From: a bacterium
GTDB taxonomy: Bacteria; UBA8248; JACPRG01; G963555815
Assembly (NCBI GenBank): GCA_965218795.1
Contig: OZ244653.1
Span: 1,376,001 to 1,440,000 of the forward strand
DNA: 64,000 bases
Direction of reading: 5' to 3'
Below are positions 32,801 to 55,599 of this stretch, one piece after another; positions within the stretch are counted from its first letter, which is position 1; every line of letters starts with the position of its first letter. The notes beneath the pieces are model-generated. The model did not search any database and was not told the DNA's origin. It saw only the letters and a program-made list of their open reading frames with translations. The position numbers were made by a program, and so were the translations under genes.

Positions 32801-33670
32801 ATGGAAATTCAGAGCGTTGCAGTGATCGGCGCGGGCATCATGGGCAACGGAATCGCCCAGGTCGCAGCTCTGGGAGGGTTCGAAACCCGCCTGATGGACG
32901 CCGACGATTCCGCCCTTCATCAGGGCCTCGCCAGCATCAAACGGAACCTTGAAAAGGGCGTCGAGCGCGGCAAGGTCGAATCCGCTGGGATGGAAGCGGC
33001 GCTCGGTCGGGTGTCCTGCACGCTCAATCTGGAAAAGGCGGCGGACGGAGTCGATCTGGTCATCGAAGCCATCGTCGAGGACATGCCCGAGAAGCTCGAC
33101 CTGTTCGGCCGGCTGGACAGGATGACGCCCCCTCACGCCATCCTGGCCACCAACACCTCGGCCCTCAGCGTGACCGAAATGGCCGGCGGGACGTCCCGTC
33201 CCGAACAGGTCTTGGGCATGCACTTCTTCAACCCACCACACCTGATGAAGCTGGTCGAGATCGTCCGAGGTCTTGAGACCTCCGATGAAACGGTTCGTGT
33301 CGCGGAAGCCGTCTCGCATCAAATGGCCAAGGAGACCGTACTGGTCAATGAATCGCCCGGCTTTGTCACATCACGGGTGAACGCGCTTTTGGGCAACGAG
33401 GCGTTCCGGATGCTGCAGGAAGGGGTTGCCACTCCGGAAGACATTGACAAGGCCGTCCGCCTCGGGCTGAACTACCCGATGGGCCCGCTCGAAATGGCCG
33501 ATATGGTGGGACTGGATACGCGGCTCCAGGTCCTCGAGCATCTTTGCCGGACCCTCGGAGAACGTTTTCGCCCTACACCAATCCATCTGAAGCACGTCAG
33601 CGCCGGGCGATTGGGCCGCAAAACCGGAAAAGGGATTTACGAATACGACGAACAGGGTAAGCGGAAGTAA
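32801..33670 (+). CDS. 3-hydroxyacyl-CoA dehydrogenase
   Basis: GAGIMG, EAIVE, NTS, GMHFFNPP, YPMGP, G.KTGKG.Y. Confidence 0.95.
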   Translation: MEIQSVAVIGAGIMGNGIAQVAALGGFETRLMDADDSALHQGLASIKRNLEKGVERGKVESAGMEAALGRVSCTLNLEKAADGVDLVIEAIVEDMPEKLDLFGRLDRMTPPHAILATNTSALSVTEMAGGTSRPEQVLGMHFFNPPHLMKLVEIVRGLETSDETVRVAEAVSHQMAKETVLVNESPGFVTSRVNALLGNEAFRMLQEGVATPEDIDKAVRLGLNYPMGPLEMADMVGLDTRLQVLEHLCRTLGERFRPTPIHLKHVSAGRLGRKTGKGIYEYDEQGKRK

Positions 33671-33720
33671 TCCCTCGCCCCGCAGGGCGGTTCCCATCCC
33701 AAGGCGTCTCATTTCCAACA

Positions 33721-33758
33721 AAAAGGGGTGAGCACGCCATTCCGCGCCCACCCCTTTC
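33721..33758. terminator. Hairpin between convergent genes (likely bidirectional terminator)
   Basis: AAAGGGGTG...CACCCCTTT inverted repeat. Confidence 0.55.
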
Positions 33759-33776
33759 GGGAAACTCAAACCAGAA

Positions 33777-34583
33777 TCAAATGCCTTTGAATTTGGGCGT
33801 TCTCTTCTCTAGAAACGCGCTGACGCCTTCCCGGGCATCCTGGCTCTGGAACAGTTGAAGCTGAAGCTCGCGTTCGAGCGCAAGACCGTCACTGAGGGAC
33901 GTCTCGACGCCGGTCTGAATCGCCCGCTTCATATTCCCAATGGCCCGGACGGCCGTTCCGGGAAGGACAAATCTCCGGGCATAATCCATCACCCTGTCCA
34001 TGAACCCGTCGGCCTTCATCACCTCATTGACCAGACCAATCGATTCCCCCTCTTCAAAGGAAATCGTCTGCCCTTTGACCATGAGCTCCAGGGCCCGGGC
34101 TTTCCCGATGAGCCGGGGCAGCCGCTGGGTCCCGCCGGAACCTGGCAGCACGCCGAGCTTGGCTTCGGGAAGGCCGATGACCCCGCCTCCTTTCTTGGCG
34201 AGACGTATGTCGCACGCCATGGCGATCTCCAGGCCCCCGCCCACCGTGTGTCCATTCAGGGCCGCGATGAACAGCTTGGGGGTGTTTTCCATTCGCGCCA
34301 GAGTTTCGTGGATATGCAGGCAGAAATAGTACAACCGGTCGGATGAGTATTCGTACAGAAGCTTGACGTCCGCGCCCGAGCAGAAAAACTTTTCTCCCGC
34401 GCCCCGAAGCACCACGATGTGGATGGACTCGTCGAATCGCACGCGCAGGATGGCCTCGTCCAGCTGATGCATCATGTCATAGCTGAAGGTATTCGCCGGC
34501 GGATTGTTGAACTCGATAATGGCAACCCCGTCCTCTTCCTTTTGAAGCGACACCAACTCGCCCGCACCCGCTCTCGGTTCCAT
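33777..34583 (-). CDS. Enoyl-CoA hydratase/isomerase
   Basis: FCSGAD, GGGLE, LPE..LG.LPG.GGTQRL. Confidence 0.93.
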   Translation of the reverse strand: MEPRAGAGELVSLQKEEDGVAIIEFNNPPANTFSYDMMHQLDEAILRVRFDESIHIVVLRGAGEKFFCSGADVKLLYEYSSDRLYYFCLHIHETLARMENTPKLFIAALNGHTVGGGLEIAMACDIRLAKKGGGVIGLPEAKLGVLPGSGGTQRLPRLIGKARALELMVKGQTISFEEGESIGLVNEVMKADGFMDRVMDYARRFVLPGTAVRAIGNMKRAIQTGVETSLSDGLALERELQLQLFQSQDAREGVSAFLEKRTPKFKGI

Positions 34584-34905: not shown

Positions 34906-34936
34906 AAAAAAAGCGGGCGTCATAACCGACGCCCGC
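34906..34936 (-). terminator. Rho-independent terminator
   Basis: GCGGGCGTC-6 nt-GACGCCCGC followed by T7 on the minus strand. Confidence 0.85.
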
Positions 34937-34970: not shown

Positions 34971-35774
34971 TCAGTCCCCGGAGAAAAGCGGCTTGCGTTT
35001 TTCCGAATAGGCCGCAATGCCTTCCTTGGCGTCGTCGCTCTGGAAAAGGAGCTGCTGAAGCTCGCGCTCGATCGCCAGCCCGTCCCCGAAAGAAGCTTCC
35101 AGGCCGGACTGAACGGACCGCTTGATGTGTCCCACCGCCTTGGCCGCTTTGTTGGGCGGAACAAACTGCTCGGCGTACTCACTGACCTTATCCATGAAAT
35201 CATCTTCATCGAGGATCAGATTGACCAGGCCGATCTCCTGCGCCTCTTCGAAATCAAAGTTCCGGCCCGTCACCATGAGCTCGATGGCTTTGGTCTTGCC
35301 GACAATCCGCGGGAGACGCTGGGTTCCCCCGGTGCCGGGGAGCACACCCAGTCCCACTTCGGGCAGGCCGATCTTTCCGCCGCCCCTCTTGGCGATTCGA
35401 ATATCCGCCGCCATCGCGACCTCCAGGCCTCCGCCGACGGTATGCCCGTTGAGCGCAGCGATGACGAGCTTCGGGGTCTGCTCGAGCCGGTTCAGGGTCT
35501 CATTGGCATGCAGGCAGAAATAGTATTTGAACTTGGGAGTCACGTTGTTGAGCATGTTGATGTTGGCGCCCGCCGAGAAGAATTTGTCTCCTTCCCCGCG
35601 GAGGACGATGACGTGGATGTCATCGTCAAAGCGCGTATCCAGAACGGCGTCGTCCAACTGACGCATCATTTCATGCGTATAGGTGTTGGCCGGAGGGTCG
35701 TTCAGCGTAATGTAGGCGACTCCGTTTTCCTTCTCGAGCTCCACCAGACTTTGGGCGACTGCTTTGTCCTGCAT
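34971..35774 (-). CDS. Enoyl-CoA hydratase/isomerase (close paralog of the preceding gene)
   Basis: RBS AGGAG; FFSAGA, YFCLH, GGGLE, LPEV.LG.LPG.GGTQRL. Confidence 0.93.
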   Translation of the reverse strand: MQDKAVAQSLVELEKENGVAYITLNDPPANTYTHEMMRQLDDAVLDTRFDDDIHVIVLRGEGDKFFSAGANINMLNNVTPKFKYYFCLHANETLNRLEQTPKLVIAALNGHTVGGGLEVAMAADIRIAKRGGGKIGLPEVGLGVLPGTGGTQRLPRIVGKTKAIELMVTGRNFDFEEAQEIGLVNLILDEDDFMDKVSEYAEQFVPPNKAAKAVGHIKRSVQSGLEASFGDGLAIERELQQLLFQSDDAKEGIAAYSEKRKPLFSGD

Positions 35775-35858
35775 TGTCCATCTCCTGGCCAAAAATCATG
35801 CTTGAGGCCCCGCAGACCCGGAAAGCATGAAAGTTACGATATACTCCGATTACTGAAT

Positions 35859-35890
35859 ATGACGTTTTTTACATATTAAACCATTTACAC
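35859..35890. promoter_or_regulatory. PadR-type operator (tandem) overlapping a minus-strand -10 (TAATAT)
   Basis: ATGA-CGTTTTTT-ACAT-ATTAAACCATTTACAC, nearly identical to 46663-46694. Confidence 0.65.
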
Positions 35891-36052
35891 CTCAAAACCA
35901 AATCTTTTTTCTTTTATCAACCGGTCAGCAGTAGACAAGTAGACGAAGATCCCATGAATGTAAGACGTTGCAATTGCCTGAAGGGATGCGGTATAGGAAT
36001 TTCAGGGGAGCCGGTCCGCCAAACGGCGCATCCTCTGAATGGGAGGCACACC

Positions 36053-37621
36053 ATGCTCGACCACGAGAATGTCGCGGCATCCATCCCGGACACTTATAAC
36101 GCCTCGACCACCTTTCTCGACGAGAACCTGGCAGCGGGCCGCGGCGAGGATACCGCCATCCTCTATGAGGGACAGACCTACACGTATGCGCAAACCCTGG
36201 AGATGACGAATCGCCTGGGCAATGCCCTGCTGTCCCTGGGTCTTCAACGGGAACAGCGCGTCCTCCTGCTTCTTCTGGATTCGCCGGAGTTCGTCGCTTC
36301 CTTTTTCGGGGGGATGCGCATCGGATCTGTGCCGATTCCCACCAACACCCTTCTGAAGCCCGCTGATTACCTTTATCTGATCAATGACTCCCGCGCGCGT
36401 ATTCTGATCGCCCATGAACCGTTGGCGGAACAAATCCGGGAGATACGGTCCGACCTGAGATTTCTCGAGCGCATGATTGTGGTAGGGGAGCCCCGGGACG
36501 ATGAGATCGGGTACCACGATCTGGTGGACGGCCAATCGGCCGAACTTCAGCCCGCCGAGACCCACAAGGACGAGATCGCCTTCTGGCTCTACAGCTCGGG
36601 TTCGACGGGATTTCCGAAAGGCGCCGTCCACCTCCACCACGACATGATCTTCTGTTCTGACCTCTACGCCCGGAACGTCCTCGATATCCAGGCAGACGAC
36701 CGGACGTTTTCCGTCGCCAAGCTTTTCTTCGCCTACGGGTTGGGAAACAACCTCTACTTCCCCTTCCGCGTGGGGGGGTCCGCTGTGTTCCATCCGCATG
36801 CCCCGAAGCCGGAGGAGATGTTCCGGGTCATCGACCGGGACAAGCCGACCCTCTTCTACTGCGTGCCGACGATGTACGCGGCCATGCTTCAGATCAAGGA
36901 TGCCGAGGATCGCTACGACCTCAGTTCCCTGCGGCTTTGCGTTTCCGCCGGCGAATCGCTGCCCGCGGAGCTTTTCAATCAGTGGAAAGAGCGATTCGGC
37001 GTCGAGATCCTCGACGGGATCGGCTCAACCGAGATGCTCCACATCTATCTCACGAACTGGGCCGGAAAGGTCGTCCCCGGGAGCAGCGGCACGGCCGTGC
37101 CGGGTTACGAGGTGAAGACCGTCGACGACGACGGCCGGCCGGTGCCCGACGGGGAGATCGGCAACCTTTGGGTGAAAGGCGACAGCTCCTCACCCTTCTA
37201 CTGGAACAAGCACGAGCAGACCAAATTCGCCATGCGGGGCGAGTGGTTCGTTTCGGGCGACAAATACAGGCGGGACGAAGCGGGCGATTACTGGTACAGC
37301 GGGCGCTCGGACGACATGCTCAAGGCAGGCGGTATCTGGGTCTCACCGGTCGAGGTGGAGAACACGCTCATCGAGCACCCAGCCGTCCTCGAAGCCGGGG
37401 TTGTGGGCCGGGATGACGATGACGGCCTGGTGAAACCCAAGGCGTTCGTCGTCCTGGCGGAAGGTCATGAGGGCTCGGACGCATTGGCGGAAGATCTCAC
37501 GGATTTCGTGCGGGAGAAGATCGCCGCCTATAAGCGACCAAGATGGTACGAGTTCATCGACAGCCTTCCTAAAACGGCCACTGGGAAGATCCAGCGCTTC
37601 AAGCTGCGGGAGAGAGGTTGA
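36053..37621 (+). CDS. Benzoate-CoA ligase family protein
   Basis: RBS GGGAGG; FWLYSSGSTGFPKG, AKLFFAYGLGN, SAGE.LP, DGIGSTEMLHI, LPKTATGKIQRF. Confidence 0.93.
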   Translation: MLDHENVAASIPDTYNASTTFLDENLAAGRGEDTAILYEGQTYTYAQTLEMTNRLGNALLSLGLQREQRVLLLLLDSPEFVASFFGGMRIGSVPIPTNTLLKPADYLYLINDSRARILIAHEPLAEQIREIRSDLRFLERMIVVGEPRDDEIGYHDLVDGQSAELQPAETHKDEIAFWLYSSGSTGFPKGAVHLHHDMIFCSDLYARNVLDIQADDRTFSVAKLFFAYGLGNNLYFPFRVGGSAVFHPHAPKPEEMFRVIDRDKPTLFYCVPTMYAAMLQIKDAEDRYDLSSLRLCVSAGESLPAELFNQWKERFGVEILDGIGSTEMLHIYLTNWAGKVVPGSSGTAVPGYEVKTVDDDGRPVPDGEIGNLWVKGDSSSPFYWNKHEQTKFAMRGEWFVSGDKYRRDEAGDYWYSGRSDDMLKAGGIWVSPVEVENTLIEHPAVLEAGVVGRDDDDGLVKPKAFVVLAEGHEGSDALAEDLTDFVREKIAAYKRPRWYEFIDSLPKTATGKIQRFKLRERG

Positions 37622-37951: not shown

Positions 37952-38060
37952 CTGGATCCCCGCTGCAGCCTGTCCTCGAATGTCTTCATCGAGGGCGGGA
38001 ATGGCCGGGTTGGAGGTCATGCGGCCCATGTTCGTCATTCCCGCGGAAGCGGGAATCCAG
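37952..38060. repeat. Composite dRS3/REP-like palindrome, copy 1
   Basis: CTGGATCCCCGC[..GCCTGTCCTCGA-N9-TCGAGG]GCGGGAATGGC-spacer-GTCATTCCCGCGGAAGCGGGAATCCAG. Confidence 0.8.
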
Positions 38061-38350: not shown

Positions 38351-41044
38351 ATGTGGTACGGTCCAGACTCCAGACTCCAGACTCCAGACTCCAGACTCCA
38401 GACTCCAGACTCCAGACTCCAGACTCCAGACTCCAGACTCCAGACTCCAGACAAGAGGCGGGGCGTGAGTGCGCGGGGGCGGATGGGCGCCATCGTCCTG
38501 ATGCTGGCCGCCGCGTTCACTCTCTGTGTCGGAGAGGCGCGGGCCCAGACGGCCGACGTGTGCAGAGGAGGCGCGCCCACAGCCGGAGAGCGGATCGTGT
38601 GCTCGAAGAGCGACGGTTCCACCGATATCACCATCAACATCACTGACTTCGACATCACGACGGACGGCATTGGGGTCATTGGCATCTTTGGCGTTCATTC
38701 CGGCACGGGCGACATCGACATCGACGTTCGAGACGCCACCATCATTGTAGAAAACAACAATCAAGGCATCTATGGTGACATTGACCGCAGCAGCGTCGGC
38801 CGCATCAGGATCTACGCTGAAAACGTCGTCTTCATGACGAACGACCATGCTATCTGGGGCAATCATTTCGGCACGGGCGACATCGACATCGACGTTCGAG
38901 GCGGAACCATCACGACGGAAGGCAGGCTGGGCTACGGCGTCTATGGCGCGCATCAAGGCATCTCCGGCGACGTCACCATCGACGTTCAGGGCGGTAGCAT
39001 CACGACGATGGGCACCCAGTCCCACGGTGTCTCTGGCATACATCAAGGCAACGGCGACATCGGCATCTCCGTTCAAGACGCCGCCATCACGACGGAAAGC
39101 ACGGGCATCACTTTGGGTCTTGGCGCTATTGCCCACGGCGTCTTAGGCTATCACCCAGGCAGCGGAAACATCGATATCTCCGTTCAGGGCGGCTCCATCA
39201 CGACGGCGGGCGCGTATTCCTACGGCATCTATGGCGTTCATCAAGGCGACGGCGACGGCGACATCACCATTACGACGGCAGGCGATAACGCCATCACCAC
39301 GGCGGGCGACAACGCCCACGGGGTCGTGGCCTATCATTACGGTACGATGGACTCTAGGACCATCGCGGTCACGGTCGGGGGAACGATCAGCGCCGGCGGG
39401 GAGAACGCGATCGGCGTCCGGGTGGGCGCCCTCAACGCCCAGGGAGAAGTGATACGCGCCGCGGGTATGGACGCGGACGGCTACCGGAGGCAGACGGTCA
39501 CGGTGAACGGCGCGGTGATGGGCGGCACGGGCGCGGGGGCGGGGGTCTGGCTCGCCGGCGGGGGCCGGGTCGTCATCGGGCCGAAGGGGAGCGTCGGCGC
39601 GGCGTCGGGCATCGCGATTCTCGCCACGGGAGACACGCCCGTCGAAAATGGAGAGCCGCTCAAGCCCAGGCTCCATGTCTCGATGAATCTCGACGGCCGC
39701 CGGGTGGCGGCTGTCTTCGGCGACGACTGGATCGTGAACGACGGGGGCGAGACCACGATCGTGGTCAACAACGTGAAGCTCCACGACGGCGCGGCGGGCG
39801 TCACCGGCCTCACGGCCCCGAACGGGGCGCGGGACGTCTTAATCATCCAGGCCGAGGGCGTCACCGTCGACCGCTCGACGGGCGCATGGGTCGTCAGTCA
39901 GAGGGCCGCCGGAGTCATCGCCGATCGGGATTTCTCCGCGGACGACTTCACCGAAACCCCCAAACCGGAAACGCCGGAAGAGCCAACAGAAAAGCCAAAA
40001 ACACCTGTCCGCATCATCGAGGTCTACGCGCCGCGCGCGGCCGTGTACGAGGCCCTTCCGGGTCTGCTGCTCGGTCTGACGGGCGGGGGTCGGGACGGGG
40101 CGCGGCTCTCGGGCGGAAGGAGAAGGTACGGGTCCGATCAGAGGAGTGCGTACGACTTCAAGCGCCTCGCGGCGGATTACGAGTCCCTGCCGGGGGTCTT
40201 CCGGCTGGGCGGCTCCGCCGGGGAGCGGCTGCGGCTGGGCGGCTCGCCGGTCTGGGTGCGGCTCTCGGGCGGGAAGGGGAGTTACAAGTCCGGGGAGGCG
40301 AGTGTCGGCGCGGCGTACGACTTCAGGCGCCTCGCGGCGGAAGCCGGGGTGGACGTCGCGTTTCCCTGGAACAAGGACATCACCGGCACGGTCTCGGTGC
40401 GGCATGTTCAGGCTTCGGCGGAGGTTTCCTCGCCGACCGGGGGCGGGGATGTCGACGCGAAGGGCTTCGGCGCGGGGTTGGGCGTGTCCTGGGGCGGCGC
40501 GAGCGGCTATTATGTCGATGGCCGCCTCTCGGTGACCGGCTACAAGGTGGACCTCTCCTCGGACAAGCGGGGCCGGCTGAAGGGGGACGTCGGCGCGCTT
40601 GCTCATTCCCTGAGCATCGAGGCGGGTCGGCGCATCGCGCTGGGCACGAGAATGAGTCTGACGCCTCGGGCGCGGCTGGTTCGTTCGGGGATTTCCATGG
40701 ACAGGTTCACCGACGCGGTGAACTCGCGGGTCAAGCTCACCGATCCGAAGCAACTCAAGGGCGTCGTCGGTTTGGCGGCGGAGACCGGTCGCGTCCGGGA
40801 CGGCGGGTCGTTCTCCCTCCGGGGTTCGGTGGACGTGGAGCGGACGCTCCGGGGCGGGGAGACGGTCGTCGAGGTATCGGGAGAGAAGCTCAGGTCGGAG
40901 TCCGAGAGAACCCGTGTTCTGCTGGGCCTGGGCGGGGTCTGGCGCCGGGGCCGCTTCTCGCTCGGCGTCGAGGCGACGGCGGACGGCCCGGGTTCGGATG
41001 AGCGGGAATACGCCGGCCAGATCAATCTCGGAATCCGGTTCTAG
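38351..41044 (+). CDS. Autotransporter (type Va) with beta-helical passenger; expression probably phase-variable
   Basis: Signal peptide ..MGAIVLMLAAAFTLCVGEARA; repeats G.H.G.GDI.I.V.GG.ITT.G; C-terminal beta-barrel ending LGIRF; true start uncertain. Confidence 0.88.
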   Translation: MWYGPDSRLQTPDSRLQTPDSRLQTPDSRLQTPDKRRGVSARGRMGAIVLMLAAAFTLCVGEARAQTADVCRGGAPTAGERIVCSKSDGSTDITINITDFDITTDGIGVIGIFGVHSGTGDIDIDVRDATIIVENNNQGIYGDIDRSSVGRIRIYAENVVFMTNDHAIWGNHFGTGDIDIDVRGGTITTEGRLGYGVYGAHQGISGDVTIDVQGGSITTMGTQSHGVSGIHQGNGDIGISVQDAAITTESTGITLGLGAIAHGVLGYHPGSGNIDISVQGGSITTAGAYSYGIYGVHQGDGDGDITITTAGDNAITTAGDNAHGVVAYHYGTMDSRTIAVTVGGTISAGGENAIGVRVGALNAQGEVIRAAGMDADGYRRQTVTVNGAVMGGTGAGAGVWLAGGGRVVIGPKGSVGAASGIAILATGDTPVENGEPLKPRLHVSMNLDGRRVAAVFGDDWIVNDGGETTIVVNNVKLHDGAAGVTGLTAPNGARDVLIIQAEGVTVDRSTGAWVVSQRAAGVIADRDFSADDFTETPKPETPEEPTEKPKTPVRIIEVYAPRAAVYEALPGLLLGLTGGGRDGARLSGGRRRYGSDQRSAYDFKRLAADYESLPGVFRLGGSAGERLRLGGSPVWVRLSGGKGSYKSGEASVGAAYDFRRLAAEAGVDVAFPWNKDITGTVSVRHVQASAEVSSPTGGGDVDAKGFGAGLGVSWGGASGYYVDGRLSVTGYKVDLSSDKRGRLKGDVGALAHSLSIEAGRRIALGTRMSLTPRARLVRSGISMDRFTDAVNSRVKLTDPKQLKGVVGLAAETGRVRDGGSFSLRGSVDVERTLRGGETVVEVSGEKLRSESERTRVLLGLGGVWRRGRFSLGVEATADGPGSDEREYAGQINLGIRF
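38362..38452 (+). repeat. Perfect heptamer tandem repeat (TCCAGAC)13
   Basis: 91 nt counted directly in the sequence. Confidence 0.98.
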
Positions 41045-41086: not shown

Positions 41087-41216
41087 CTGGATTCCCGCTA
41101 CAGCCTGCCCCCTGGATTCCTGTTGCAGCCTGCCCTCGAAGGTTTTAATCGGGGGCAGGAATAACGAACGGGGCCCCGTACAACAGCCTGTCATTCCCGC
41201 GCAAGCGGGAATCCAG
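41087..41216. repeat. Composite dRS3/REP-like palindrome, copy 2 (with duplicated 5' start)
   Basis: CTGGATTCCCGC..CTGGATTCCTG[..GCCTGCCCTCGA-N9-TCGGGG]GCAGGAATAAC-spacer-GTCATTCCCGCGCAAGCGGGAATCCAG. Confidence 0.8.
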
Positions 41217-43175: not shown

Positions 43176-43256
43176 GAATTCCTCTCCCGCCGGAGGGGGC
43201 TGTCAGAGGGTGCGCCCTTCCGGGTCCGCCGATTGAGCTTCTTTTTTTGGAATCGG

Positions 43257-43877: not shown

Positions 43878-43912
43878 CCATTTTGAACAGCAGGATTATC
43901 GCGTCGTGAGAA

Positions 43913-43942
43913 TACATATTTTATATATGTAAATTTCTACAT
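43913..43942. promoter_or_regulatory. PadR-type operator upstream of padR-aor
   Basis: Exact ATGT-N8-ACAT (43927-43942) plus adjacent TACATAT..ATATGTA inverted repeat in an AT-rich patch. Confidence 0.7.
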
Positions 43943-44076
43943 AATCAAATAGCCAGCCATTCTTGCACCGAACCGGAGGATATTCAAGGGGCAAAGAACG
44001 AAAATTCTGGATCCAGTGCGCCAAGCCCCGGCACATACGCTTCCGGCCGACTCTTCTCGATGCGGATTGAAATCGG

Positions 44077-44358
44077 CTATCCGCCCGCAAAGGAGACCAT
44101 CAAGGCCACCTCGTCGCCTTCTTGAAGCTCGCGGTCGAGGCTCCCGTCCCGGCTGACTTGCGCATCGTTCACAGCCACAAAGATGTGAGGCTCCAGGCGG
44201 CCGTCTTGGTCGAACAGCTCCTCCCCCATTGCGGGAAACCGGGATTTCAATTGTAGCAGCACGTCCTGGACGGTTGTCCCTTCCGCCATATCATAATCCA
44301 GCCGTTCGTTCCCTGCGGCGTCCTTCAGAACGCTGGTCAAGACAACTTGAATCTTCAT
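44077..44358 (-). CDS. MoaD/ThiS-family sulfur carrier
   Basis: 93 aa; VAVN, L.EGDEV, C-terminal FAGG. Confidence 0.92.
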   Translation of the reverse strand: MKIQVVLTSVLKDAAGNERLDYDMAEGTTVQDVLLQLKSRFPAMGEELFDQDGRLEPHIFVAVNDAQVSRDGSLDRELQEGDEVALMVSFAGG

Positions 44359-44455
44359 CGACCCCTTCGCCGGATCCCATAGTTCAACCCTGAAAACATC
44401 AATCAAGAATGTCGGTGCTCCGATCCAAATCAGGCGCGGCGTCAAATTTCATACT

Positions 44456-45745
44456 TCAGTTTCTTTGCAGCCGCCGGGCCTTGAGCTCGAATCTCGGCAG
44501 GGCGCCCGGCTCGACCAGCGTGACCACCGCGCGGACGCCCAGCCGGTTCTGGACCTGCTCGGAGAGCCGGCTGGCCACCGAGTTCGCCGGGGCGGATTCG
44601 ACGCACTCCAGGCACAGTTTGAGCTCGGCCATTTCCCGTACGGTCTCAACCTCGATCCGGAACTCCTCGACCTCACTGAACTCCCGGACGATGTTCTCGA
44701 CGGCGCTGGGGTAGACGTTCACCCCGCGCACCACGAACATATCGTCGGCGCGGCCGATGATCCCGCCTTCGGCCCAGGCAAAGGTGCGGCCGTCCGGACA
44801 TTCCTCGGGCGAGATTCGGATCAAGTCCCTCGTCCGGTAGCGGATGACCGGCATGCCCGCCCGGCCCAGGTTCGTGATAACCAATTCCCCTTCCCCGCCG
44901 GGCTCCACCGGGGTCTGCCCGCCGGGCTCGAGCACCTCGATGATGAACTCGGCCTCATTCAGGTAGGCCCCGCCGGGCCGGTCGATTCCCTCGAACCCGA
45001 AGGCCCCCACCTCCGTGGCTCCGGTGTGGTCGATACAGCGGGCGCCCCACGCCTCTTCGATCCGCCGCTTCGTGGCCGGAATGTTGGCTCCGGGTTCTCC
45101 TGCATGAACGGTTACCCGGACAGGACTATCGGCCAAGTCGACCCCCATCTCGCGGGCTTCTTCGGCCAGCCTGAGGGCATAGGTCGGGGTGCAGACCACG
45201 ACAGTGGATTTCGATTCCAGTATCGCCTCGACCCGTTGACGGGTGGAAAGCCCTCCTCCGGGGATGAGCAGGGCGCCCACCTTCCTCACGCCCTCCACCG
45301 CCGCCCAGAACCCGATGAACGGAGCGAAGGAGAAAGCGACGAAAACACGGTCCTCGGCAGTGACGCCGGCGGCGGCGAATACATAGCCCCAGCAGGCGCC
45401 CCACCAGTCCCAGCTTTCTCTTGTATCCAGCCACCGGAGCGGCTGTCCCGTCGTGCCCGATGTCTGATGAATCCGGACGTATTCCGACGGAGGAAGGGTA
45501 AGGTTCGTTCCGAACTCGGGATGTTCGCGCTGGTCCCGGACCAGCTCGTCTTTGAGGGTGAACGGGATGCGGTGGAGGTCGTCGAGACCTCGTACGTCCC
45601 GTGGGCCCAGGCCTGAGGCTTCCAGCTTTCGCGTATAGAACCCGTTCCGGCCGTGTATGGCCGCAATCAATGCGCGGAGCTTCTCACTTTGGAGGACGGT
45701 CAGATGATCCCGGCCGGCCGTTTCAATTTCCCTGGCAAAAAACAA
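44456..45745 (-). CDS. Phenylacetate-CoA ligase (PaaK)-like aryl-CoA ligase
   Basis: HQTSGTTGQP, CTPTYAL, AGEPG, GATE, RYRT.D, GRADDM..VRGVNVYP, LPRFELKARR; probable TTG start. Confidence 0.9.
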   Translation of the reverse strand: MFFAREIETAGRDHLTVLQSEKLRALIAAIHGRNGFYTRKLEASGLGPRDVRGLDDLHRIPFTLKDELVRDQREHPEFGTNLTLPPSEYVRIHQTSGTTGQPLRWLDTRESWDWWGACWGYVFAAAGVTAEDRVFVAFSFAPFIGFWAAVEGVRKVGALLIPGGGLSTRQRVEAILESKSTVVVCTPTYALRLAEEAREMGVDLADSPVRVTVHAGEPGANIPATKRRIEEAWGARCIDHTGATEVGAFGFEGIDRPGGAYLNEAEFIIEVLEPGGQTPVEPGGEGELVITNLGRAGMPVIRYRTRDLIRISPEECPDGRTFAWAEGGIIGRADDMFVVRGVNVYPSAVENIVREFSEVEEFRIEVETVREMAELKLCLECVESAPANSVASRLSEQVQNRLGVRAVVTLVEPGALPRFELKARRLQRN

Positions 45746-45837
45746 CGCGCGGCTCTTCCCGATAACAACGATGTCAATCCGTGACGGACCCCATGAAAAG
45801 GAGCCTGCGAATCCGGACGCCTGACGATGGAACCCCG

Positions 45838-46575
45838 TCAATCGATATTCGACTCGTCCTTGTACATCACCTTGTGCCGCTTGGTTTCAATCCATTCCCG
45901 GATGTCTGCGTCGGTCTTCGTCCTCGAAGAGTCATACCGCCCCCAATGGACGATTTCCTCCAAAGATTTCTTTTGGCGGACGTAAGGCTCTCTTTCCGGA
46001 CGGCCGAAGCACATGATGTCAATCACGTCAAGAACCCCGGGCGCCCCCAGAATCGGCTTCAGCGCCTTCTGGGCCCTTTCCTGCCCGATGGCCGTCACCC
46101 ACCAGGACGAATACCCCAATGCGGCCGCGGCCAAATGCATGCTCATCACAGAGGCCGCCAGGCTCTGGAGAAGGATTCGTTGCGCATTGGCTTGGTACAT
46201 CTCGTCCAGCTCGCTTCCGTCGTTGAGGACCGGAAACGCGTTCACATAACGGAAATCGACCAGAGCGACGATGAGCCCGGGTGCGGTCTTCATGCCGCTG
46301 TAGTTGGGGGTCGGGAACCCCATTTGCATCTTCGCGCGCTTCCGGGCCTCGTTGATGAAGTAATCGCCAATCTTCTCTTTGAGGGCGGGCTCCTCAACGA
46401 TGATGTATTCCCAGGGTTGGGAATTGGCCCCCGAGCAGGCGTGACGTCCCGCCTCGATGATCTGTTCGAATACTTCCCTGGAAACTGCTTCTTCTTTGAA
46501 TTTTCGGCTTGTGTGCCGGCTTCGGACTATTTCCATGTACGAGCTGTAAAGATCCGTCGCGGTTTCCATTGTCAT
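45838..46575 (-). CDS. Nitroreductase-family flavoprotein
   Basis: RSRHTSRKF, ACSGANSQPW.YIIV, MHLAAAALG. Confidence 0.9.
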   Translation of the reverse strand: MTMETATDLYSSYMEIVRSRHTSRKFKEEAVSREVFEQIIEAGRHACSGANSQPWEYIIVEEPALKEKIGDYFINEARKRAKMQMGFPTPNYSGMKTAPGLIVALVDFRYVNAFPVLNDGSELDEMYQANAQRILLQSLAASVMSMHLAAAALGYSSWWVTAIGQERAQKALKPILGAPGVLDVIDIMCFGRPEREPYVRQKKSLEEIVHWGRYDSSRTKTDADIREWIETKRHKVMYKDESNID

Positions 46576-46662
46576 GAGCTTTCCCCTTTTCATCGAACAG
46601 CGACCATCGTCGGATGGACGGCGCCTGGACTCGTTTCGTCGATTCCATATGGAAGGCTTCTT

Positions 46663-46694
46663 ATGAAGATACTTACATATTACACCATTTACAT
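46663..46694. promoter_or_regulatory. PadR-type operator (tandem) overlapping a minus-strand -10 (TAATAT)
   Basis: ATGA-AGATACTT-ACAT-ATTACACCATTTACAT. Confidence 0.65.
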
Positions 46695-46771
46695 GAGTCT
46701 GAAAGCAAGATTGTCCCTTCTTTCCTTCTCATCCTCCAAGGGTCGGAGGAAGCTGTCTTCCGCAGCCTCGT

Positions 46772-47569
46772 CTATTTCAACTTCCGGAAGGGTGTGATGA
46801 TCATTCCCCGGAAGGTATGCCAGTCCGGGCTTGTGGATTGCTCCAGGCCGTACCGGACGTCGTGTACATCATCCCGCCGGCTATAGCTGCGGAACACCCG
46901 GTCCCACCAGGAAAATACGCTCGAATAATTTGAATTGGTTTCCGGCATGCAATCCGAATGATGAAGCCGATGCATACCGGGAGACACGATGACGGCGCGC
47001 AATGCGGCGTCCACCATCGCGGGCAAACCTACGTTGCTGTGATGAAGCAGGATGACGGGGAGCAGAATCGCCTCGTAAAGGACCAGCTGCCAGAGCGCCA
47101 TCCCCAGAAGAGGAATCACGAGAAGGCGCGCGATATACGAGAGAATGATCTCCCCCGGGTGGAATCGAACCGCCGACGTCACATCCACCCGGGGATCCGT
47201 ATGGTGAACCTTGTGGAATCGCCACAGGAAGGGGATTTCATGATTGATTCGGTGCCACCAGTACATCCAGGCGTCGAATATCAGGAGGGCCAGCGGGATC
47301 TCCGCCCAAAGGGGGAGCGCCAGCCAAGGGAGCAACCCGAATCCGGCTTCTCGCGACCCTCCGGCAACCAAGGCCACGGCGCCTGCGAAAAAAGCCCCGA
47401 TGACGAACGCATTCACTGCCCCGAACGCCAAATTCCTGACCGCATGCGTCCATCTGGACTTTGTCTGGTTGAATTCTACGAAGAACGGAAACCAGGTTTC
47501 GAGGAACCAGAGGAGAACGAGGCCCCCCAGCGAGACCAAGGTTTTCGAAGACATCAAGGCTTCAATCAT
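46772..47569 (-). CDS. Sterol desaturase / fatty acid hydroxylase family membrane protein
   Basis: His boxes YWWHRINH, HKVHH, RFHP, HHSN, HRLHH. Confidence 0.9.
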   Translation of the reverse strand: MIEALMSSKTLVSLGGLVLLWFLETWFPFFVEFNQTKSRWTHAVRNLAFGAVNAFVIGAFFAGAVALVAGGSREAGFGLLPWLALPLWAEIPLALLIFDAWMYWWHRINHEIPFLWRFHKVHHTDPRVDVTSAVRFHPGEIILSYIARLLVIPLLGMALWQLVLYEAILLPVILLHHSNVGLPAMVDAALRAVIVSPGMHRLHHSDCMPETNSNYSSVFSWWDRVFRSYSRRDDVHDVRYGLEQSTSPDWHTFRGMIITPFRKLK

Positions 47570-47745
47570 TGCTCATCCGGCCAATGGGGCTCGGACCGAC
47601 CGGGACCGCCCCGAATCCATAAGACCCCGCCGTCCAATCTGAATTGGTGGCGCCTGCCTCGCGCAAATCGAGCTCACTTCGTCCCGGGGCAATGAAAAAA
47701 CATCGGGGAGGAGGCTCTGCTTTAGAAGAAACGGCCGCCAATCGA

Positions 47746-49071
47746 TCACAAAGCGGAGTCTCTCTGGTCGACGACGCGACGCGCCTTGAATTCATGCCGG
47801 GGAAGGCTCCCCGCATCGCATATTTCGATCTTGAAGCGAAGTCCGCCGTGGGTGCGGCTGAGGGCCTTCTCCAGCTCTTCGGACAACCCCTCCCGGCTCA
47901 TTCCATCGTTCGCCGGCTCAAAACGCAAGGTGATTTCATCCGCGCCGGCTTCATTTTTTTCCAAAATGAGTTGCCACTCGTCCACGGGGACGCATCCCCT
48001 CAAAACCTGCTCTACCGAACCGGGGAACACGTTGACCCCGCGCACGATGAGCATATCGTCGGATCGGCCAAGAACGCCTCTCTCGAACAGCAGGAACGTC
48101 CGCCCGCAGCCGCAGCCGCGCCTCGTGGGTCGAACCAGATCCCCCGTCCGGTAACGCATGGCCGGAAAGCCGAACCGGCCGAGGTTCGTGAGCACGAGGC
48201 CCCCGACCTCTCCTTCTTCCACCGGTTCCTCGGTTGCGGGATCCAGGACTTCGAGGATGTGCTCCGCCTCCAGGGCATGCAATCCGGCCTGCTCCATGCA
48301 CGAATAGCCGAACAGCCCCGCTTCGGTCATCCCGGCGAACTCGAACGTCTTCGCCCCCCAGGCCTCTTCAATCGACTGGCGCATAGAGGGGATGGAAGCG
48401 CCCGGCTCCCCGGCGTGGATGGTGCGGCGGATGGACGATCTTGCGATATCCAGCCCCGCTTCCCGCGCGACCTCGGCCAGGCGGAGAGCATAAGAAGGCG
48501 TGCATACCAATACCGTTGCTTCGAGGTCGAGGATCAACCGAAGCCTGTCCTCAGAGGAAAACCCGCCGCCCGGAATGACGGAGGCCCCAATGTGCTCGGC
48601 ACCCCCGAACATTGTCCAGAAGGCCGCGAATGGACCGAATTGGAAAGCGAAGAACACCCGGTCGGCGGCGGATACCCCGGCCGAGCGGTACAGGTACGCC
48701 GCCGTCTCCATTCGCCACGCCCAACTCTCCCTTGTTTCCATCACCCGGAGAGAGCGCCCGCTGGTACCCGACGTCTGAAAGATCCGGACATAATCACTCA
48801 GCGGTTCGGTATGGTTCCGGCCGAAGGGGGGATGCGCCGCCTGCTCCTCTTCCCATTCCAGCTTGGTCGTTATCGGGAGTTTTCGGAGATCGTCCGGGGA
48901 CTGTATGTCTTCAAGGGACACTCCCGCCTGCGCATACTTTTCCCGGTAGAACCCGGATCGGTCGAATACATACCGAAGCTGAGACTGGAGCTTCGTCCAC
49001 TGCAAAGCCCGGATGGCCTCGGCTGATGAGGTTTCGACTTCCGGTTTCCAATAACTCACCGATTCATGCAT
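47746..49071 (-). CDS. Phenylacetate-CoA ligase (PaaK)-like aryl-CoA ligase (paralog)
   Basis: QTSGTSG, CTPSYAL, AGEPG, GMTE, RYRTGD, GRSDDM.IVRGVNVFP. Confidence 0.9.
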   Translation of the reverse strand: MHESVSYWKPEVETSSAEAIRALQWTKLQSQLRYVFDRSGFYREKYAQAGVSLEDIQSPDDLRKLPITTKLEWEEEQAAHPPFGRNHTEPLSDYVRIFQTSGTSGRSLRVMETRESWAWRMETAAYLYRSAGVSAADRVFFAFQFGPFAAFWTMFGGAEHIGASVIPGGGFSSEDRLRLILDLEATVLVCTPSYALRLAEVAREAGLDIARSSIRRTIHAGEPGASIPSMRQSIEEAWGAKTFEFAGMTEAGLFGYSCMEQAGLHALEAEHILEVLDPATEEPVEEGEVGGLVLTNLGRFGFPAMRYRTGDLVRPTRRGCGCGRTFLLFERGVLGRSDDMLIVRGVNVFPGSVEQVLRGCVPVDEWQLILEKNEAGADEITLRFEPANDGMSREGLSEELEKALSRTHGGLRFKIEICDAGSLPRHEFKARRVVDQRDSAL

Positions 49072-49098
49072 TGAAGGATTCTTGTGATTCGAACGGCT

Positions 49099-50460
49099 CT
49101 ACTGTCCGCCGTCAACAAAATCCTCAAGGCGCACGCCGGCCATCACATCGGGGGGGATTTCATTTCGGTTGGCGAACTCGGCCAGCGTCGGCTTGGCCGT
49201 GGCGTCGATTCCGACTTTGGAAGTAAACCCGTCCGGCTGGGATGACGGATCGAGATCCGACCCCCGCGCATTGGGAATGACACAGATATCCCGGTGCGGC
49301 TGGCAGCGTGTGCCGATGGCCCACTGGACGCGAAAATCGTCGAACACATCGACGTCATGGTCGACGACCACCACCCGCTTCAGATACAGCTCTGAGCCGA
49401 ACGCGGCGAGCACGGCGTTCATGGATTGCCCCGCAACCCGCTTCTCAATGGAGATGTAAACGGTGAATGGAGCCGGGATCCGGACCGCCCGGGTGGATGG
49501 CACAGCGGCCCGCACGGCCCTCAAAAGATTCGCCTCCATGGGAATGGTGGAGAGGACCATGTGGTCCGCGTGGGCAACGTTGATATCGTGAAACAGGGCG
49601 TCCTTCCGCCGGGTGACGGCCTTCACGTGGACCACTTCGCGCGGCCGCTCGCCAAGGGAGTAACCCGTGAATTCGCTGAAGGGTCCCTCGGGCTCCCGAA
49701 CGCCGGGGGGAATCTCCCCCTCGATGACAAGCTCCGCTTGCGCGGGGATGGGTATATCGACCGTCTCGCCCCTCACCACTTCCAGCGGCTCCTGGAGAAG
49801 CCCGCCGATGACGGCCAGCTCGTCCTCATCCGCGGCCCCCACGTGGAGCGTCCCCAACGCCCATAAGGGGTGAAGCCCGAAGACAAGTGCGATGGGCAGA
49901 GCCTCCCCACGCGCTTCGGCCTTCTGGTAGAACTCCCAATGGTGCTTGGCCAGGGTGAGGTGAATGCCGGTTTTCCGGGGACCCTTGACCATCAGCCGGT
50001 TGAAGCTGGCGTTGAGGGCTCCGGTTTCCGGATCTCGGGTAATGGCCATCGCGCCGGTGAAGTAGGGGCCTGCATCTGTCCAATGGTGATGGATTTGCGG
50101 CAGCTTGAGGATGTCAACCGAATCGCCGGTCTCGACCACTTCTTTGACCGGCCCGGTGCCCACCTCTTTGGGAGGAATCGGATTGAACCCCCGCCGGTCG
50201 AATTCCGCGACAGCGTTTTTGACATCGGTCCCAAGGGCGCCAGCCAATCGTGAGCGTTTGGCGAAAACGTTGGTCACAACAGTGAAATCCGTACCCTTGA
50301 CGTTCCGTAATTCCAGAACGGGCCGGCGGCGGACCCCTTCGAGCTTTTCCGTCAGGGCCGTAATCTCGAAGTTCGGGTCGATCTCACGTTCGACGACTTC
50401 ATATTCCTCGGGGGCGGCCGAACGGACTTCTTTCAGGAACCCCCTCAAGTCATCAGCCAT
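49099..50460 (-). CDS. UbiD-family prFMN-dependent (de)carboxylase
   Basis: DLRGF, DAGPYFT, FNR, ELVIEG, EGPFSEFTGY, VVDHDVD, KVGIDAT. Confidence 0.95.
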   Translation of the reverse strand: MADDLRGFLKEVRSAAPEEYEVVEREIDPNFEITALTEKLEGVRRRPVLELRNVKGTDFTVVTNVFAKRSRLAGALGTDVKNAVAEFDRRGFNPIPPKEVGTGPVKEVVETGDSVDILKLPQIHHHWTDAGPYFTGAMAITRDPETGALNASFNRLMVKGPRKTGIHLTLAKHHWEFYQKAEARGEALPIALVFGLHPLWALGTLHVGAADEDELAVIGGLLQEPLEVVRGETVDIPIPAQAELVIEGEIPPGVREPEGPFSEFTGYSLGERPREVVHVKAVTRRKDALFHDINVAHADHMVLSTIPMEANLLRAVRAAVPSTRAVRIPAPFTVYISIEKRVAGQSMNAVLAAFGSELYLKRVVVVDHDVDVFDDFRVQWAIGTRCQPHRDICVIPNARGSDLDPSSQPDGFTSKVGIDATAKPTLAEFANRNEIPPDVMAGVRLEDFVDGGQ

Positions 50461-50668
50461 AACCCTGTTTATTCTCCGTGTCGAATCAAGAATCCGTGTA
50501 CCGTTAGCATGTCCTGCAAATCGAGTCAAATCCTGTTTCCCTTTATGCAACACCGCTCAGCCTCGACATCGGGGGTGGTATCCTTTACATTGTGCCCCTT
50601 AGACGACCCCGCTATTTGTGGAAGTTTTTCACATCCGCAAGTTCCTTTTCCGTCCAAGAGGACGCAGC

Positions 50669-51709
50669 ATGGGCTATTCCGAGATTCCGGAGACCGCGCA
50701 ACGGCCTGAGCGCGGTACGCCGGGCGAGATATTCAAGAACATGCCCGAGTGGTACAAGACACGCCACCCGGAAGTGATGCGGTATCGGTGGATTCGCACG
50801 GATTTTGAAAATCGGGCGCTGTTCGAAGGCGAGCCCAACCCCATACGGGTGGAGATAGAAGACCCAAGTTCGCTGACGGAGCATATCAAGGAAAAGGCGC
50901 TGGAGATGGGCGCTGACATCGTCGGCGTTTGCGAGTTCGTGGACGAATTCTTCTTCGCGGACACAGAGCCCCCGGCCCACTCCCACGTCATCTGTTTCGG
51001 CGTCAAGATGGAATTCGACGAGATGAAGCGGGTGGGTCCACGATCCCAGATCGAGGTCCACCGGGTCTATTACAAAATCTTCGATATCAGCGCGCGGCTG
51101 GCCCAGTACATCAGAAGTTTCGGTTATGAAGCCACGGGATACGGCAACGACGGGCCGGTTCTCATGATCCCGTATGCCTGGCTGTCGGGATTGGGCGAGT
51201 TGGGCAAGCACGGCTCGCTGATCACCAAGGAGTTCGGTCCCAGCCTGCGCCTGGGCGCGGTCTCTACCTCCCTCCCGCTGGCCGCGGAGCCCCGGCCGGC
51301 CGATTTTGGCGTCCAGGATTTTTGTACGAACTGCGACCTCTGCTCGAAACACTGCCCCGGGTTGGCCATACCTGATGAGAAGCAGCGCGTCCGCGGGTGG
51401 GATATCTGGCAAGTGGACACGGAAGCCTGTCTCCCTTACTTCAAGAAATATGATGGGTGCAAGCTTTGCCTGATGGTGTGCCCTTACAATCTCGAAGGAA
51501 CCCAAAAGAAGGATTTTCACATCCTGGCCAAGGAGCTGGCCCGCCGGAAGCTCACCGCCGGTGAATTGATCGAGGAGTGGTCGTTGGAGGAACCCATTCC
51601 CGTACCCACGGCCCCCGGTCAAACGGGCCCCCCGGATTACGAGCGACCCAAGAACCTCCCGACGGACTTGAACCTGCCGCCGGATCCGACCCCCAAACCC
51701 ACAACCTAA
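50669..51709 (+). CDS. Reductive dehalogenase/QueG-like 2x[4Fe-4S] protein
   Basis: GADIVG, GLGELGKHGSLITKEFGP.LRL, FCTNCDLCSKHCP, C.PYF....GCKLCLMVCP; no TAT signal. Confidence 0.75.
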   Translation: MGYSEIPETAQRPERGTPGEIFKNMPEWYKTRHPEVMRYRWIRTDFENRALFEGEPNPIRVEIEDPSSLTEHIKEKALEMGADIVGVCEFVDEFFFADTEPPAHSHVICFGVKMEFDEMKRVGPRSQIEVHRVYYKIFDISARLAQYIRSFGYEATGYGNDGPVLMIPYAWLSGLGELGKHGSLITKEFGPSLRLGAVSTSLPLAAEPRPADFGVQDFCTNCDLCSKHCPGLAIPDEKQRVRGWDIWQVDTEACLPYFKKYDGCKLCLMVCPYNLEGTQKKDFHILAKELARRKLTAGELIEEWSLEEPIPVPTAPGQTGPPDYERPKNLPTDLNLPPDPTPKPTT

Positions 51710-55595: not shown

Positions 55596-55599
55596 AAAA

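Follow-up and report, generated by a model that had tools for sequence, protein, structure and literature searches.

The DNA considered here (the window) is a 64,000-nucleotide stretch from a bacterium of the lineage UBA8248 (assembly GCA_965218795.1, contig OZ244653.1, positions 1,376,001–1,440,000 of the forward strand). Between window positions 32801 and 51709 it carries genes for a PadR-family regulator, an aldehyde:ferredoxin oxidoreductase (AOR), CoA ligases of the benzoate (BCL) and PaaK-like (PaaK1 and PaaK2) types, a nitroreductase-superfamily flavoprotein (NTR), a UbiD-family decarboxylase and several other proteins. A preliminary description of the window had assembled these genes into one undescribed pathway, a PadR-linked linear funnel leading from substituted aromatics to aroyl-CoA. 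In our reading, to which we assign a probability of about 0.55, the region instead holds two linked modules: a predicted, lineage-specific PadR regulon and a separately regulated ubiD-paaK1 pair. The regulon is likely to comprise three transcription units, padR-aor, ntr-paaK2-moaD and the divergent ech2/bcl genes.

The genome (G000) is a single contig of 5.17 Mb with an estimated completeness of 98.9%. Genes were called as open reading frames with a filter on G+C content at third codon positions (GC3) and were then searched against the Pfam and NCBIfam profiles, which recovered every gene that had been named in the region beforehand. The features of the predicted regulon, including the putative operator sites, are as follows.

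34971–35792, minus strand: enoyl-CoA hydratase ECH2, a generic crotonase divergent from bcl (ECH_1, 194.5 bits).
35858–35889, no strand: putative operator site 1, spanning 32 nt and including TATGACGTTTTTTACATAT, between the divergent genes ech2 and bcl.
35954–37621, plus strand: benzoate-CoA ligase family protein BCL (TIGR02262, 630 bits; cut-off 375.25).
41310–43175, minus strand: AOR, directly downstream of padR (AFOR_N, 227 bits; AFOR_C, 336 bits).
43257–43877, minus strand: PadR-family regulator (PF03551, 62.4 bits, cut-off 27; C-terminal domain PF10400, Vir_act_alpha_C, 71.9 bits).
43925–43943, no strand: putative operator site 2, TATGTAGAAATTTACATAT, a perfect ATGT-N8-ACAT lying 48 nt upstream of padR.
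44077–44358, minus strand: MoaD/ThiS-type small protein with the C-terminus AGG; the likely start Met is at 44358 and the longest open reading frame extends to 44445.
44456–45841, minus strand: PaaK-like adenylating CoA ligase 2, PaaK2 (AMP-binding_C_2 and AMP-binding).
45838–46593, minus strand: nitroreductase-superfamily flavoprotein NTR (Pfam Nitroreductase, 88.7 bits).
46662–46693, no strand: putative operator site 3, spanning 32 nt and including TATGAAGATACTTACATAT; it lies 69 nt upstream of the start of ntr.

The PadR protein is the sole match to PF03551 in the whole genome. A repeat search returned one repeat family, with members in three intergenic regions; its two best copies are the elements at sites 1 and 3. 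They are identical at 27 of 32 positions, and their 21-nt core has no other match in the genome when up to four mismatches are allowed (two matches in total). Alignment of the padR upstream region to these two sites gave the core TATGW-N8-ACATAT, which occurs three times on both strands of the genome, each time at one of these promoters, with about 0.9 occurrences expected from base composition. The half-sites are arranged as ATGT-N8-ACAT at 43925–43943 and as ATGA-N8-ACAT at 35858 and 46662. The canonical PadR operator is described as an ATGT/ACAT inverted repeat with a spacer of approximately 8–10 nt (PMC3506622), and an inverted repeat of this kind is thus present at the predicted target promoters. 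The preliminary description had linked the cluster to PadR and had noted one operator shared by three promoter regions. Both statements hold, as all three genome-wide matches to the pattern lie at those promoters and the only PadR of the genome is accompanied by three PadR-type operators, all of them here.

Upstream of padR, two hexamers that we assigned by reading the sequence, TTGATT and TATAAA, stand 17 nt apart, and site 2 exactly fills this spacer. Its position inside a −35/−10 spacer implies autorepression. A general consensus scan for promoters and terminators gave no excess over shuffled sequences (4 promoters with 4.9 expected, and 16 terminators with 18.6 expected). We compared the region with three genomes from other genera of the same family (G003, G004 and G006) and also with G001, G002 and G005. 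The TTGATT-17 nt-TATAAA layout is kept in G004 and G006 and is weaker in G003. The site 1 element is kept at the orthologous ech/bcl intergenic region in G003, G004 and G006, and the site 3 element is also found upstream of ntr in G003. Neither ubiD-paaK1 nor the neighbouring reductive-dehalogenase-like (RDH-like) gene has a match to the operator.

The regulator resembles PadR, LmrR and the other studied members of the family, as described in PMC3506622, in its winged-helix domain and C-terminal domain, and also in having a perfect ATGT-N8-ACAT at its own promoter with related sites at two more promoters. The difference lies in the targets. Studied PadR proteins act on phenolic acid decarboxylase or efflux genes, whereas the predicted targets here are a tungsten AOR, a PaaK-like ligase, a nitroreductase, a benzoate-type ligase and a crotonase.

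Among solved structures, AOR scores highest against 1aor (345.6 bits), and lower against FOR (1b25; 220 bits), the Aromatoleum enzyme (8c0z; 217 bits) and BamB (4z3w; 198.5 bits). Its score to the GAPOR model is 34 bits, the cut-off being 1300. The protein thus combines the AFOR domains with a greater likeness to AOR than to FOR, GAPOR or BamB. It is nearer to the single-subunit Pyrococcus type, and a tungsten cofactor and aldehyde oxidation are predicted for it. Its nearest relatives outside the lineage are 50–57% identical and are labelled as members of anaerobic groups, Clostridia, Chloroflexi and Aminicenantia among them. The MoaD-like protein scores above the cut-offs of both TIGR01687 (54 bits; cut-off 49.5) and NF041918 (62 bits; cut-off 60) and has a Gly-Gly end, and its gene beside AOR is the only hint of cofactor supply. 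The closest described parallel is the aorABCDE system of Aromatoleum aromaticum, in which phenylacetaldehyde is converted to phenylacetate and then to phenylacetyl-CoA and in which aorD and aorE of the aor operon resemble MoaD (PMC6365974). A MoaD-like gene, a nearby PaaK-like ligase and the logic of aldehyde to acid to CoA ester are shared with the system described there, but the AOR found here is nearer to the single-subunit Pyrococcus type, has no adjacent aorA or aorC and is predicted to be under PadR control. With this precedent, the step from aldehyde through acid to CoA ester that had been proposed for AOR and the ligases is a sound proposal.

The stop codon of ntr overlaps the start of paaK2 by 4 nt. 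The NTR family is approximately 60% identical across phyla and returned 2102 proteins at E ≤ 1e-10; a protein atlas search with NTR gave generic nitroreductase clusters only. Of the 11 loci of other phyla in which we examined its neighbours, four have a PaaK2-like gene within 6 kb and none has a MoaD gene, which led us to reject the idea of NTR, PaaK2 and MoaD as a widely conserved trio and which ties MoaD better to AOR. Other neighbours are a thiamine-diphosphate enzyme (four of the six loci with Pfam annotation) and, in some loci, enzymes of the xanthine dehydrogenase (XDH) family, crotonase-like genes, an aldehyde dehydrogenase and UbiD. Within this set of loci (L013–L023), members of the NTR family that are 54–61% identical lie beside a thiamine-diphosphate enzyme of about 630–660 residues in four gammaproteobacterial loci, and in three Rokubacteria-type loci the family occurs near XDH, crotonase-like and PaaK-like genes. 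Such neighbourhoods of NTR with thiamine-diphosphate enzymes, XDH proteins and ligases look like an unnamed conserved catabolic association.

BCL gives its best score among solved structures to an anthranilate-CoA ligase (4wv3; 533 bits), with the benzoate-CoA ligases at 444–480 bits, and it fails the 3-hydroxybenzoate-CoA ligase equivalog (408.5 bits against 1000). Within the genome, its next paralogue shares 36% identity with it. The closest solved relative of ECH2 is the enoyl-CoA hydratase 2ppy, and no dehalogenase or hydratase-lyase entry is present among its solved-structure matches at E ≤ 1e-30. We considered BCL and ECH as a 4-chlorobenzoate ligase/dehalogenase pair and discarded this assignment, as the solved relatives of ECH2 are ordinary hydratases and include no dehalogenase entry at that threshold.

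The second module and the gene that faces it lie at the other end of the region.

47746–49071, minus strand: PaaK-like adenylating CoA ligase 1, PaaK1, 27 nt downstream of ubiD (AMP-binding_C_2 and AMP-binding).
49099–50553, minus strand: UbiD-family decarboxylase of the HmfF-like clade (UbiD_N, UbiD and UbiD_C; TIGR00148, 320.3 bits, cut-off 244.85).
50618–51709, plus strand: RDH-like B12/Fe-S protein of 363 residues, divergent from ubiD (best family match TIGR02486, 113.9 bits; cut-off 160.35).

With its three domains and a TIGR00148 score above the cut-off, UbiD is a member of its family. Its best match in a solved structure is 6h6v (316 bits over residues 52–458), the HmfF of Pelotomaculum thermopropionicum (PMC8988006). 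HmfF is described as a decarboxylase of free furan-2,5-dicarboxylic acid (PMC6644310, PMC8988006). The scores against the phthaloyl-CoA decarboxylase entries 8pmk and 8oz5, the aroyl-CoA decarboxylase entries used for comparison, are 59–60 bits, and on these scores we rejected an assignment to the phthaloyl-CoA decarboxylase type. The preliminary description had UbiD acting on an aroyl-CoA; its likeness to HmfF instead suggests that a free dicarboxylate would be decarboxylated before CoA ligation, the opposite order, as proven for isophthalate (PMC9516798), being conceivable as well.

PaaK1 and PaaK2 are 46% identical. Both fail the PaaK equivalog TIGR02155 (248.3 and 241.5 bits, respectively; cut-off 646.3) and are classed only as members of the PaaK-like superfamily. 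The closest solved relative of PaaK1 is 4r1l (234 bits). In G006 a 927-residue open frame suggested a fusion of UbiD with PaaK1; we rejected it as an out-of-frame stretch over a GC-rich gene, UbiD having its own stop codon.

Two described systems resemble the pair. In the isophthalate module of Syntrophorhabdus aromaticivorans (PMC9516798), a PaaK-like ligase gene also lies directly beside a UbiD-family gene. The comparison is one of gene layout. The cited work describes a PaaK-like isophthalate-CoA ligase, a UbiD-type isophthalyl-CoA decarboxylase and UbiX, with ligation proven to precede decarboxylation, whereas here UbiD is HmfF-like, ubiX is not adjacent but approximately 100 kb away and the benzoyl-CoA pathway was not detected in the genome. 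In the furoate pathway (PMC6644310, PMC8988006), the furan-2,5-dicarboxylate decarboxylase HmfF/HmfG is followed by a furoyl-CoA synthetase. The pair shares with it the best solved relative (PtHmfF), a CoA-ligase gene after the decarboxylase gene and the presence of a three-subunit XDH-family enzyme and a crotonase 3–8 kb away (54780–59702), which we count as neighbours of the ubiD-paaK1 unit. It differs from the furoate pathway as described in having a ligase of the PaaK type and no adjacent UbiX.

The closest solved relative of the RDH-like protein is NpRdhA (4ras; 135 bits), the alignment covering residues 293–576 of the 704-residue chain. The translation contains two Fe-S motifs, CxxCxxCxxxCP and CxxCxxxCP (Fer4_7, 31.7 bits), as expected for two 4Fe-4S clusters, and no twin-arginine (RR) motif, from which the protein is apparently cytoplasmic. 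It shares both properties with NpRdhA, a cytoplasmic catabolic enzyme, but it is about half as long, falls below the TIGR02486 cut-off for reductive dehalogenases and has lost an internal part in two relatives. G006 has an intact copy of the gene (80.5% identity). In G004 (L002, joined coordinates 10840–11487) the gene has an in-frame internal deletion that takes out the first Fe-S motif, and its counterpart on the metagenome contig L028 (2878–3435) shows the same gap in coverage; approximately 105–130 residues are missing, with ubiD and paaK1 intact. The gene looks dispensable.

Comparison with the relatives shows that the genes fall into two blocks. Block A consists of FTHFS, the RDH-like gene, UbiD, PaaK1, NTR, PaaK2, MoaD, PadR and AOR; block B consists of a GNAT acetyltransferase, 3-hydroxyacyl-CoA dehydrogenase (HADH), one enoyl-CoA hydratase (ECH; the ECH2 orthologue) and BCL. 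Block A is complete in G004 and G006, with identities of 61–88%. In G003 it is fragmented, with UbiD-PaaK1-NTR-PaaK2 on contig C257 and MoaD-PadR-AOR on contig C421, and L028 holds FTHFS, the RDH-like gene, UbiD and PaaK1. G004 and G006 also retain block B, of which G003 shows the ECH-BCL part. The blocks are 41 kb apart on one contig in G004 and lie on separate contigs in G006. Only in the present genome are they neighbours, with an autotransporter gene between them that is absent between the blocks in the relatives.

The phyletic pattern is common to both blocks. Orthologues of AOR (84–88% identity) were found in G003, G004 and G006 only, in a search that took in 40 relatives, the remaining matches being at most 38% identical. 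NTR orthologues (72–80%) occur in the same three genomes alone among 50 other genomes of the phylum, the other 47 having none. BCL orthologues (78–82%) are present in these three and absent from G001 and G002 (G005 was not part of this search). PaaK1 has orthologues in G003 and G006, and in G004 by tblastn, and none in G001, G002 or G005; its identity is 72–74% in G003, G004, G006 and L028. The values for the remaining members of block A are 76–77% for PaaK2, 75–76% for PadR, 61–64% for the MoaD-like protein and 84–87% for UbiD. A scan of metagenomes with UbiD returned one locus only, 87% identical and belonging to a close relative. The genes are therefore co-conserved across related genomes, as the preliminary description would have it, but as two blocks rather than as one contiguous pathway cluster.

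According to the two-module reading, PadR would bind TATGW-N8-ACATAT at its own promoter and at those of ntr-paaK2-moaD and the divergent ech2/bcl genes, and an aromatic acid or aldehyde acting as effector would release it, upon which the enzymes would be made. AOR, as a single-subunit tungsten enzyme, would convert an aromatic aldehyde to the acid, with MoaD serving pterin-cofactor synthesis. BCL, of the benzoate/anthranilate type, and PaaK2 would turn the acid or acids into CoA thioesters, and these would be processed by the NTR flavoprotein and the crotonase together with the neighbouring hydroxyacyl-CoA dehydrogenase. In the separate ubiD-paaK1 module, a free (hetero)aromatic dicarboxylic acid would be decarboxylated by the HmfF-like enzyme and the product then converted to its CoA ester. 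The seemingly dispensable B12 dehalogenase-like gene faces this module.

Each of these modules has a described precedent; their combination under one PadR does not, and our literature search found no relevant report combining PadR, aldehyde ferredoxin oxidoreductase and phenylacetate-CoA ligase. The description of the pathway as undescribed is therefore apt for the combination, but not for the association of a PaaK-like ligase with UbiD, which is already known for isophthalate (PMC9516798). If the regulon is real, it offers a compact handle on the use of aromatics in an uncultured lineage, with a single repressor, three operators and about eight enzymes. The HmfF-like (de)carboxylase, the two PaaK-like ligases and the bacterial single-subunit AOR are of biocatalytic interest, as is the widespread NTR family with its recurrent proximity to CoA-dependent catabolic genes. 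The cluster by itself reveals no new biochemical principle.

Several observations weigh against the two-module reading. The pattern TATGW-N8-ACATAT was drawn up post hoc, with the sites already seen, so that its informative part is its absence elsewhere in the genome. The ech/bcl sites of the relatives are degenerate (ATTA-N8-GCAT or ATTA-N8-ACAT), the 32-nt element is matched only in part upstream of ntr in G004 and G006, and the upstream region of HADH has no operator of its own. On the enzymatic side, ECH2 and HADH are of generic β-oxidation types with no aromatic-specific signature, and AOR enzymes are reported to accept many aldehydes, including aliphatic ones (PMC6365974). Since both PaaK-like ligases score far below the equivalog cut-off, we infer their aromatic substrate rather than read it from a family assignment. 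We identified neither a thiolase nor an acyl-CoA dehydrogenase nor a ring-attack enzyme with which the pathway would be complete, and there is no thiolase in either block. Lastly, the four genomes are close kin, so that their synteny and common pattern of occurrence lend support but are not strong evidence.

We weighed three other readings of the region. In the linear funnel of the preliminary description, AOR would oxidize an aldehyde to an acid, a ligase would form the aroyl-CoA, and decarboxylation by UbiD and dehalogenation by the RDH-like protein would then lead to benzoyl-CoA. All of the enzyme classes do lie within 19 kb, ubiD and paaK1 are tightly linked and remain paired in G003, G004, G006 and L028, and the isophthalate route has been proven to use a PaaK-like ligase first and a UbiD aroyl-CoA decarboxylase second (PMC9516798). 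The PadR link, the co-conservation and the sequence of aldehyde, acid and CoA ester survive from this proposal. What makes the funnel as a whole quite unlikely is that UbiD scores 316 bits to a free-acid decarboxylase and 59–60 bits to phthaloyl-CoA decarboxylase, that ubiD-paaK1 and the RDH-like gene stand outside the operator pattern, and that the arm with BCL, ECH and HADH stands in a block of its own in the relatives. The proposed dehalogenation step fares no better, its gene being internally deleted in G004 and L028 where the rest of the block is intact, and the benzoyl-CoA at the end of the funnel has no recognizable sink, as detailed below. It is also conceivable, if unlikely, that the region is a set of unrelated modules that are neighbours by chance, with the shared motif a promoter element or a local duplication serving no common regulator. 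Genes of these kinds are found throughout a genome with 40 UbiD paralogues and approximately 70 XDH-family large subunits, the blocks are separated by 41 kb in G004 and do not share a contig in G006, and they meet here only across the inserted autotransporter; moreover, the partial match at ntr in G004 and G006 means that the near-identity seen here could in part reflect local duplication. Such a reading has to contend with a motif that fits the published PadR operator and sits at the promoter of the only PadR, with the retention of the ech/bcl element in three other genomes and of the ntr element in G003, and with an identical presence/absence pattern for both blocks. In addition, two of the four PaaK-like ligases of the genome are located here, and an adenylating ligase lies within 5 kb of four of the 40 UbiD genes (random mean 1.5), which marks ubiD-paaK1 as exceptional in this genome and not as a chance product of UbiD density. 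By comparison, an XDH gene is near about 13 of the 40.

PadR regulators are linked to phenolic-acid responses, and a third reading takes the cluster as a route for hydroxycinnamate or phenylpropanoid degradation, with ligation, hydration and oxidation (ECH and HADH), oxidation of the resulting aldehyde by AOR and re-activation by BCL. The regulon would supply two aryl-acid ligases, a hydratase and an aldehyde-oxidizing enzyme for such a scheme, and HADH is a conserved neighbour. We regard it as very unlikely, given that ECH2 is generic, with the hydroxycinnamoyl-CoA hydratase/lyase model outside its 25 best NCBIfam matches and such enzymes likewise missing from its solved matches, that BCL is of the benzoate/anthranilate and not of the cinnamate-ligase type, that neither block provides a thiolase and that the nitroreductase would have no explained role.

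The genome as a whole bears on the fate of the ring. The preliminary description had noted that ubiX and the box, bcr, bam and paa genes are missing from the window, which is correct. A single UbiX above the cut-off is encoded elsewhere in the genome (C1:1275834–1276376), approximately 100 kb upstream of the window, so that UbiX is available to the cell. The ring-attack markers were missing genome-wide as well: BcrC (TIGR02263) and the HGD-D family (PF06050) gave no match above the cut-off, and the best scores were 83 bits for Oah/BamA (cut-off 464), 53 bits for BoxB (499) and 35 bits for PaaA (280). The genome has three AOR paralogues, the third of which scores 46 bits to BamB and 108 bits to AOR and is thus not BamB-like. 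The search for a sink covered BcrC, HGD-D, BamB-like AOR, Oah/BamA, BoxB and PaaA and left aside the aerobic ring-cleaving dioxygenases. With none of these markers found in a 98.9%-complete single-contig genome, benzoyl-CoA would be a hub without a visible sink, which argues against it as the product. The weak BoxB and PaaA matches come from a 451-residue diiron-type protein encoded at approximately 4.945 Mb.

The genome contains 40–41 UbiD genes, and the counts in G001, G003, G004 and G006 are 31, 36, 56 and 47, with two each in G002 and G005; an expansion to 31–56 copies is thus found in five of the seven family genomes searched, this one included. Large subunits of the XDH/CoxL family number approximately 70 genome-wide, three of them in the window (5726–8083, 55912–58242 and 61643–63991). 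Expansion of the CoxL family has been described in sponge symbionts (PMC8941161). A literature search on UbiD in connection with sponges and Nitrospinota found no paper on the UbiD expansion. The expansion of UbiD and XDH alongside the missing ring-attack systems that were searched for is a more unusual feature than the cluster. A further reading, which we hold to be speculative and rather improbable, takes the cluster to be part of a specialised catabolism by which an invertebrate-associated lineage would degrade halogenated or heteroaromatic acids and aldehydes derived from its host, with derivatives of pyrrole, furan, indole or tyrosine as candidate substrates. In this lineage, with its 31–56 UbiD copies and about 70 molybdenum hydroxylases, the PadR regulon and the HmfF-like pair would feed CoA esters to a ring attack that does without the known benzoyl-CoA and phenylacetyl-CoA enzymes. 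The attack itself might be based on XDH-type hydroxylases, with the nitroreductase-fold and B12 proteins conceivably acting as dehalogenases.

The remaining genes of the region and its edge are listed below.

32016–32618, minus strand: GNAT acetyltransferase, a conserved neighbour in block B (Pfam Acetyltransf_3, 112.7 bits).
32672–33670, plus strand: HADH (Pfam 3HCDH_N and 3HCDH); the true start is likely to be at 32801.
33777–34583, minus strand: enoyl-CoA hydratase ECH1, an extra paralogue (ECH_1, 185 bits).
38351–41044, plus strand: autotransporter of 897 residues, between the two blocks and outside the pathway (autotransporter β-domain, 87 bits).
46772–47569, minus strand: fatty-acid-hydroxylase-family gene, an insertion found in this genome only (FA_hydroxylase, 99.9 bits).

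Orthologues of the GNAT protein (57–58% identity) adjoin HADH in G004 and G006, and HADH itself is 67–74% identical to its orthologues in these genomes; its score to NCBIfam PRK09260 (404.6 bits) is below the cut-off of 429. The preliminary description had counted two paralogous crotonases. ECH1 is specific to this genome and is 60% identical to ECH2, and the block B locus has a single ECH in G004 and G006 (full-length contigs) and in G003 (the short contig C373), which is ECH2-like (78–81% identity, compared with 63% to ECH1). The autotransporter and the fatty-acid-hydroxylase-family gene had gone unnamed and interrupt the cluster; in G003, G004 and G006 the latter has no counterpart between paaK1 and ntr.

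Several minor observations concern the surroundings. A crotonase (54780–55595, plus strand) adjoins the three-subunit XDH-family enzyme (55912–59702, minus strand), the large subunit of which, at 55912–58242, scores 489 bits to the 4-hydroxybenzoyl-CoA reductase α model (cut-off 995). Together they may form a CoA-ester hydroxylase or reductase unit. In G006 an orthologue of the crotonase lies downstream of FTHFS. A locus elsewhere in the genome (L026; G000:C1:930000–946000) contains UbiD, an AMP-dependent ligase, a crotonase and an XDH large subunit, followed by the third PaaK-like ligase of the genome and a zinc alcohol dehydrogenase, and its layout comes nearer to the furoate (hmf) gene set than that of the cluster in the window. 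A second UbiD gene of the window (21842–23227) is followed by three fragments of tyrosine-integrase genes (23339–25932); in G004 and G006 its orthologue, at 83–85% identity, likewise lies near the GNAT gene, approximately 5–6 kb away.

As DNA, window positions 41310–51300 are contained wholly or partly in 20 public runs from 11 studies, none of them recorded as RNA. The sampled words are present at a fraction of 0.21 in a run labelled as sponge metagenome and at lower fractions in further runs from sponge and coral metagenomes; we take these labels as a habitat lead only.

The autotransporter gene contains 12 perfect tandem copies of CCAGACT (38363–38446), starting 12 nt past its ATG, and a paralogue of 82% identity at 4555041–4557932 has five copies. 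From these repeats the protein looks like a slipped-strand, phase-variable surface protein. A 27-nt palindromic repeat at 38034–38060 and 41190–41216 (26 of 27 positions identical) brackets the gene, which is consistent with its insertion between two conserved blocks.

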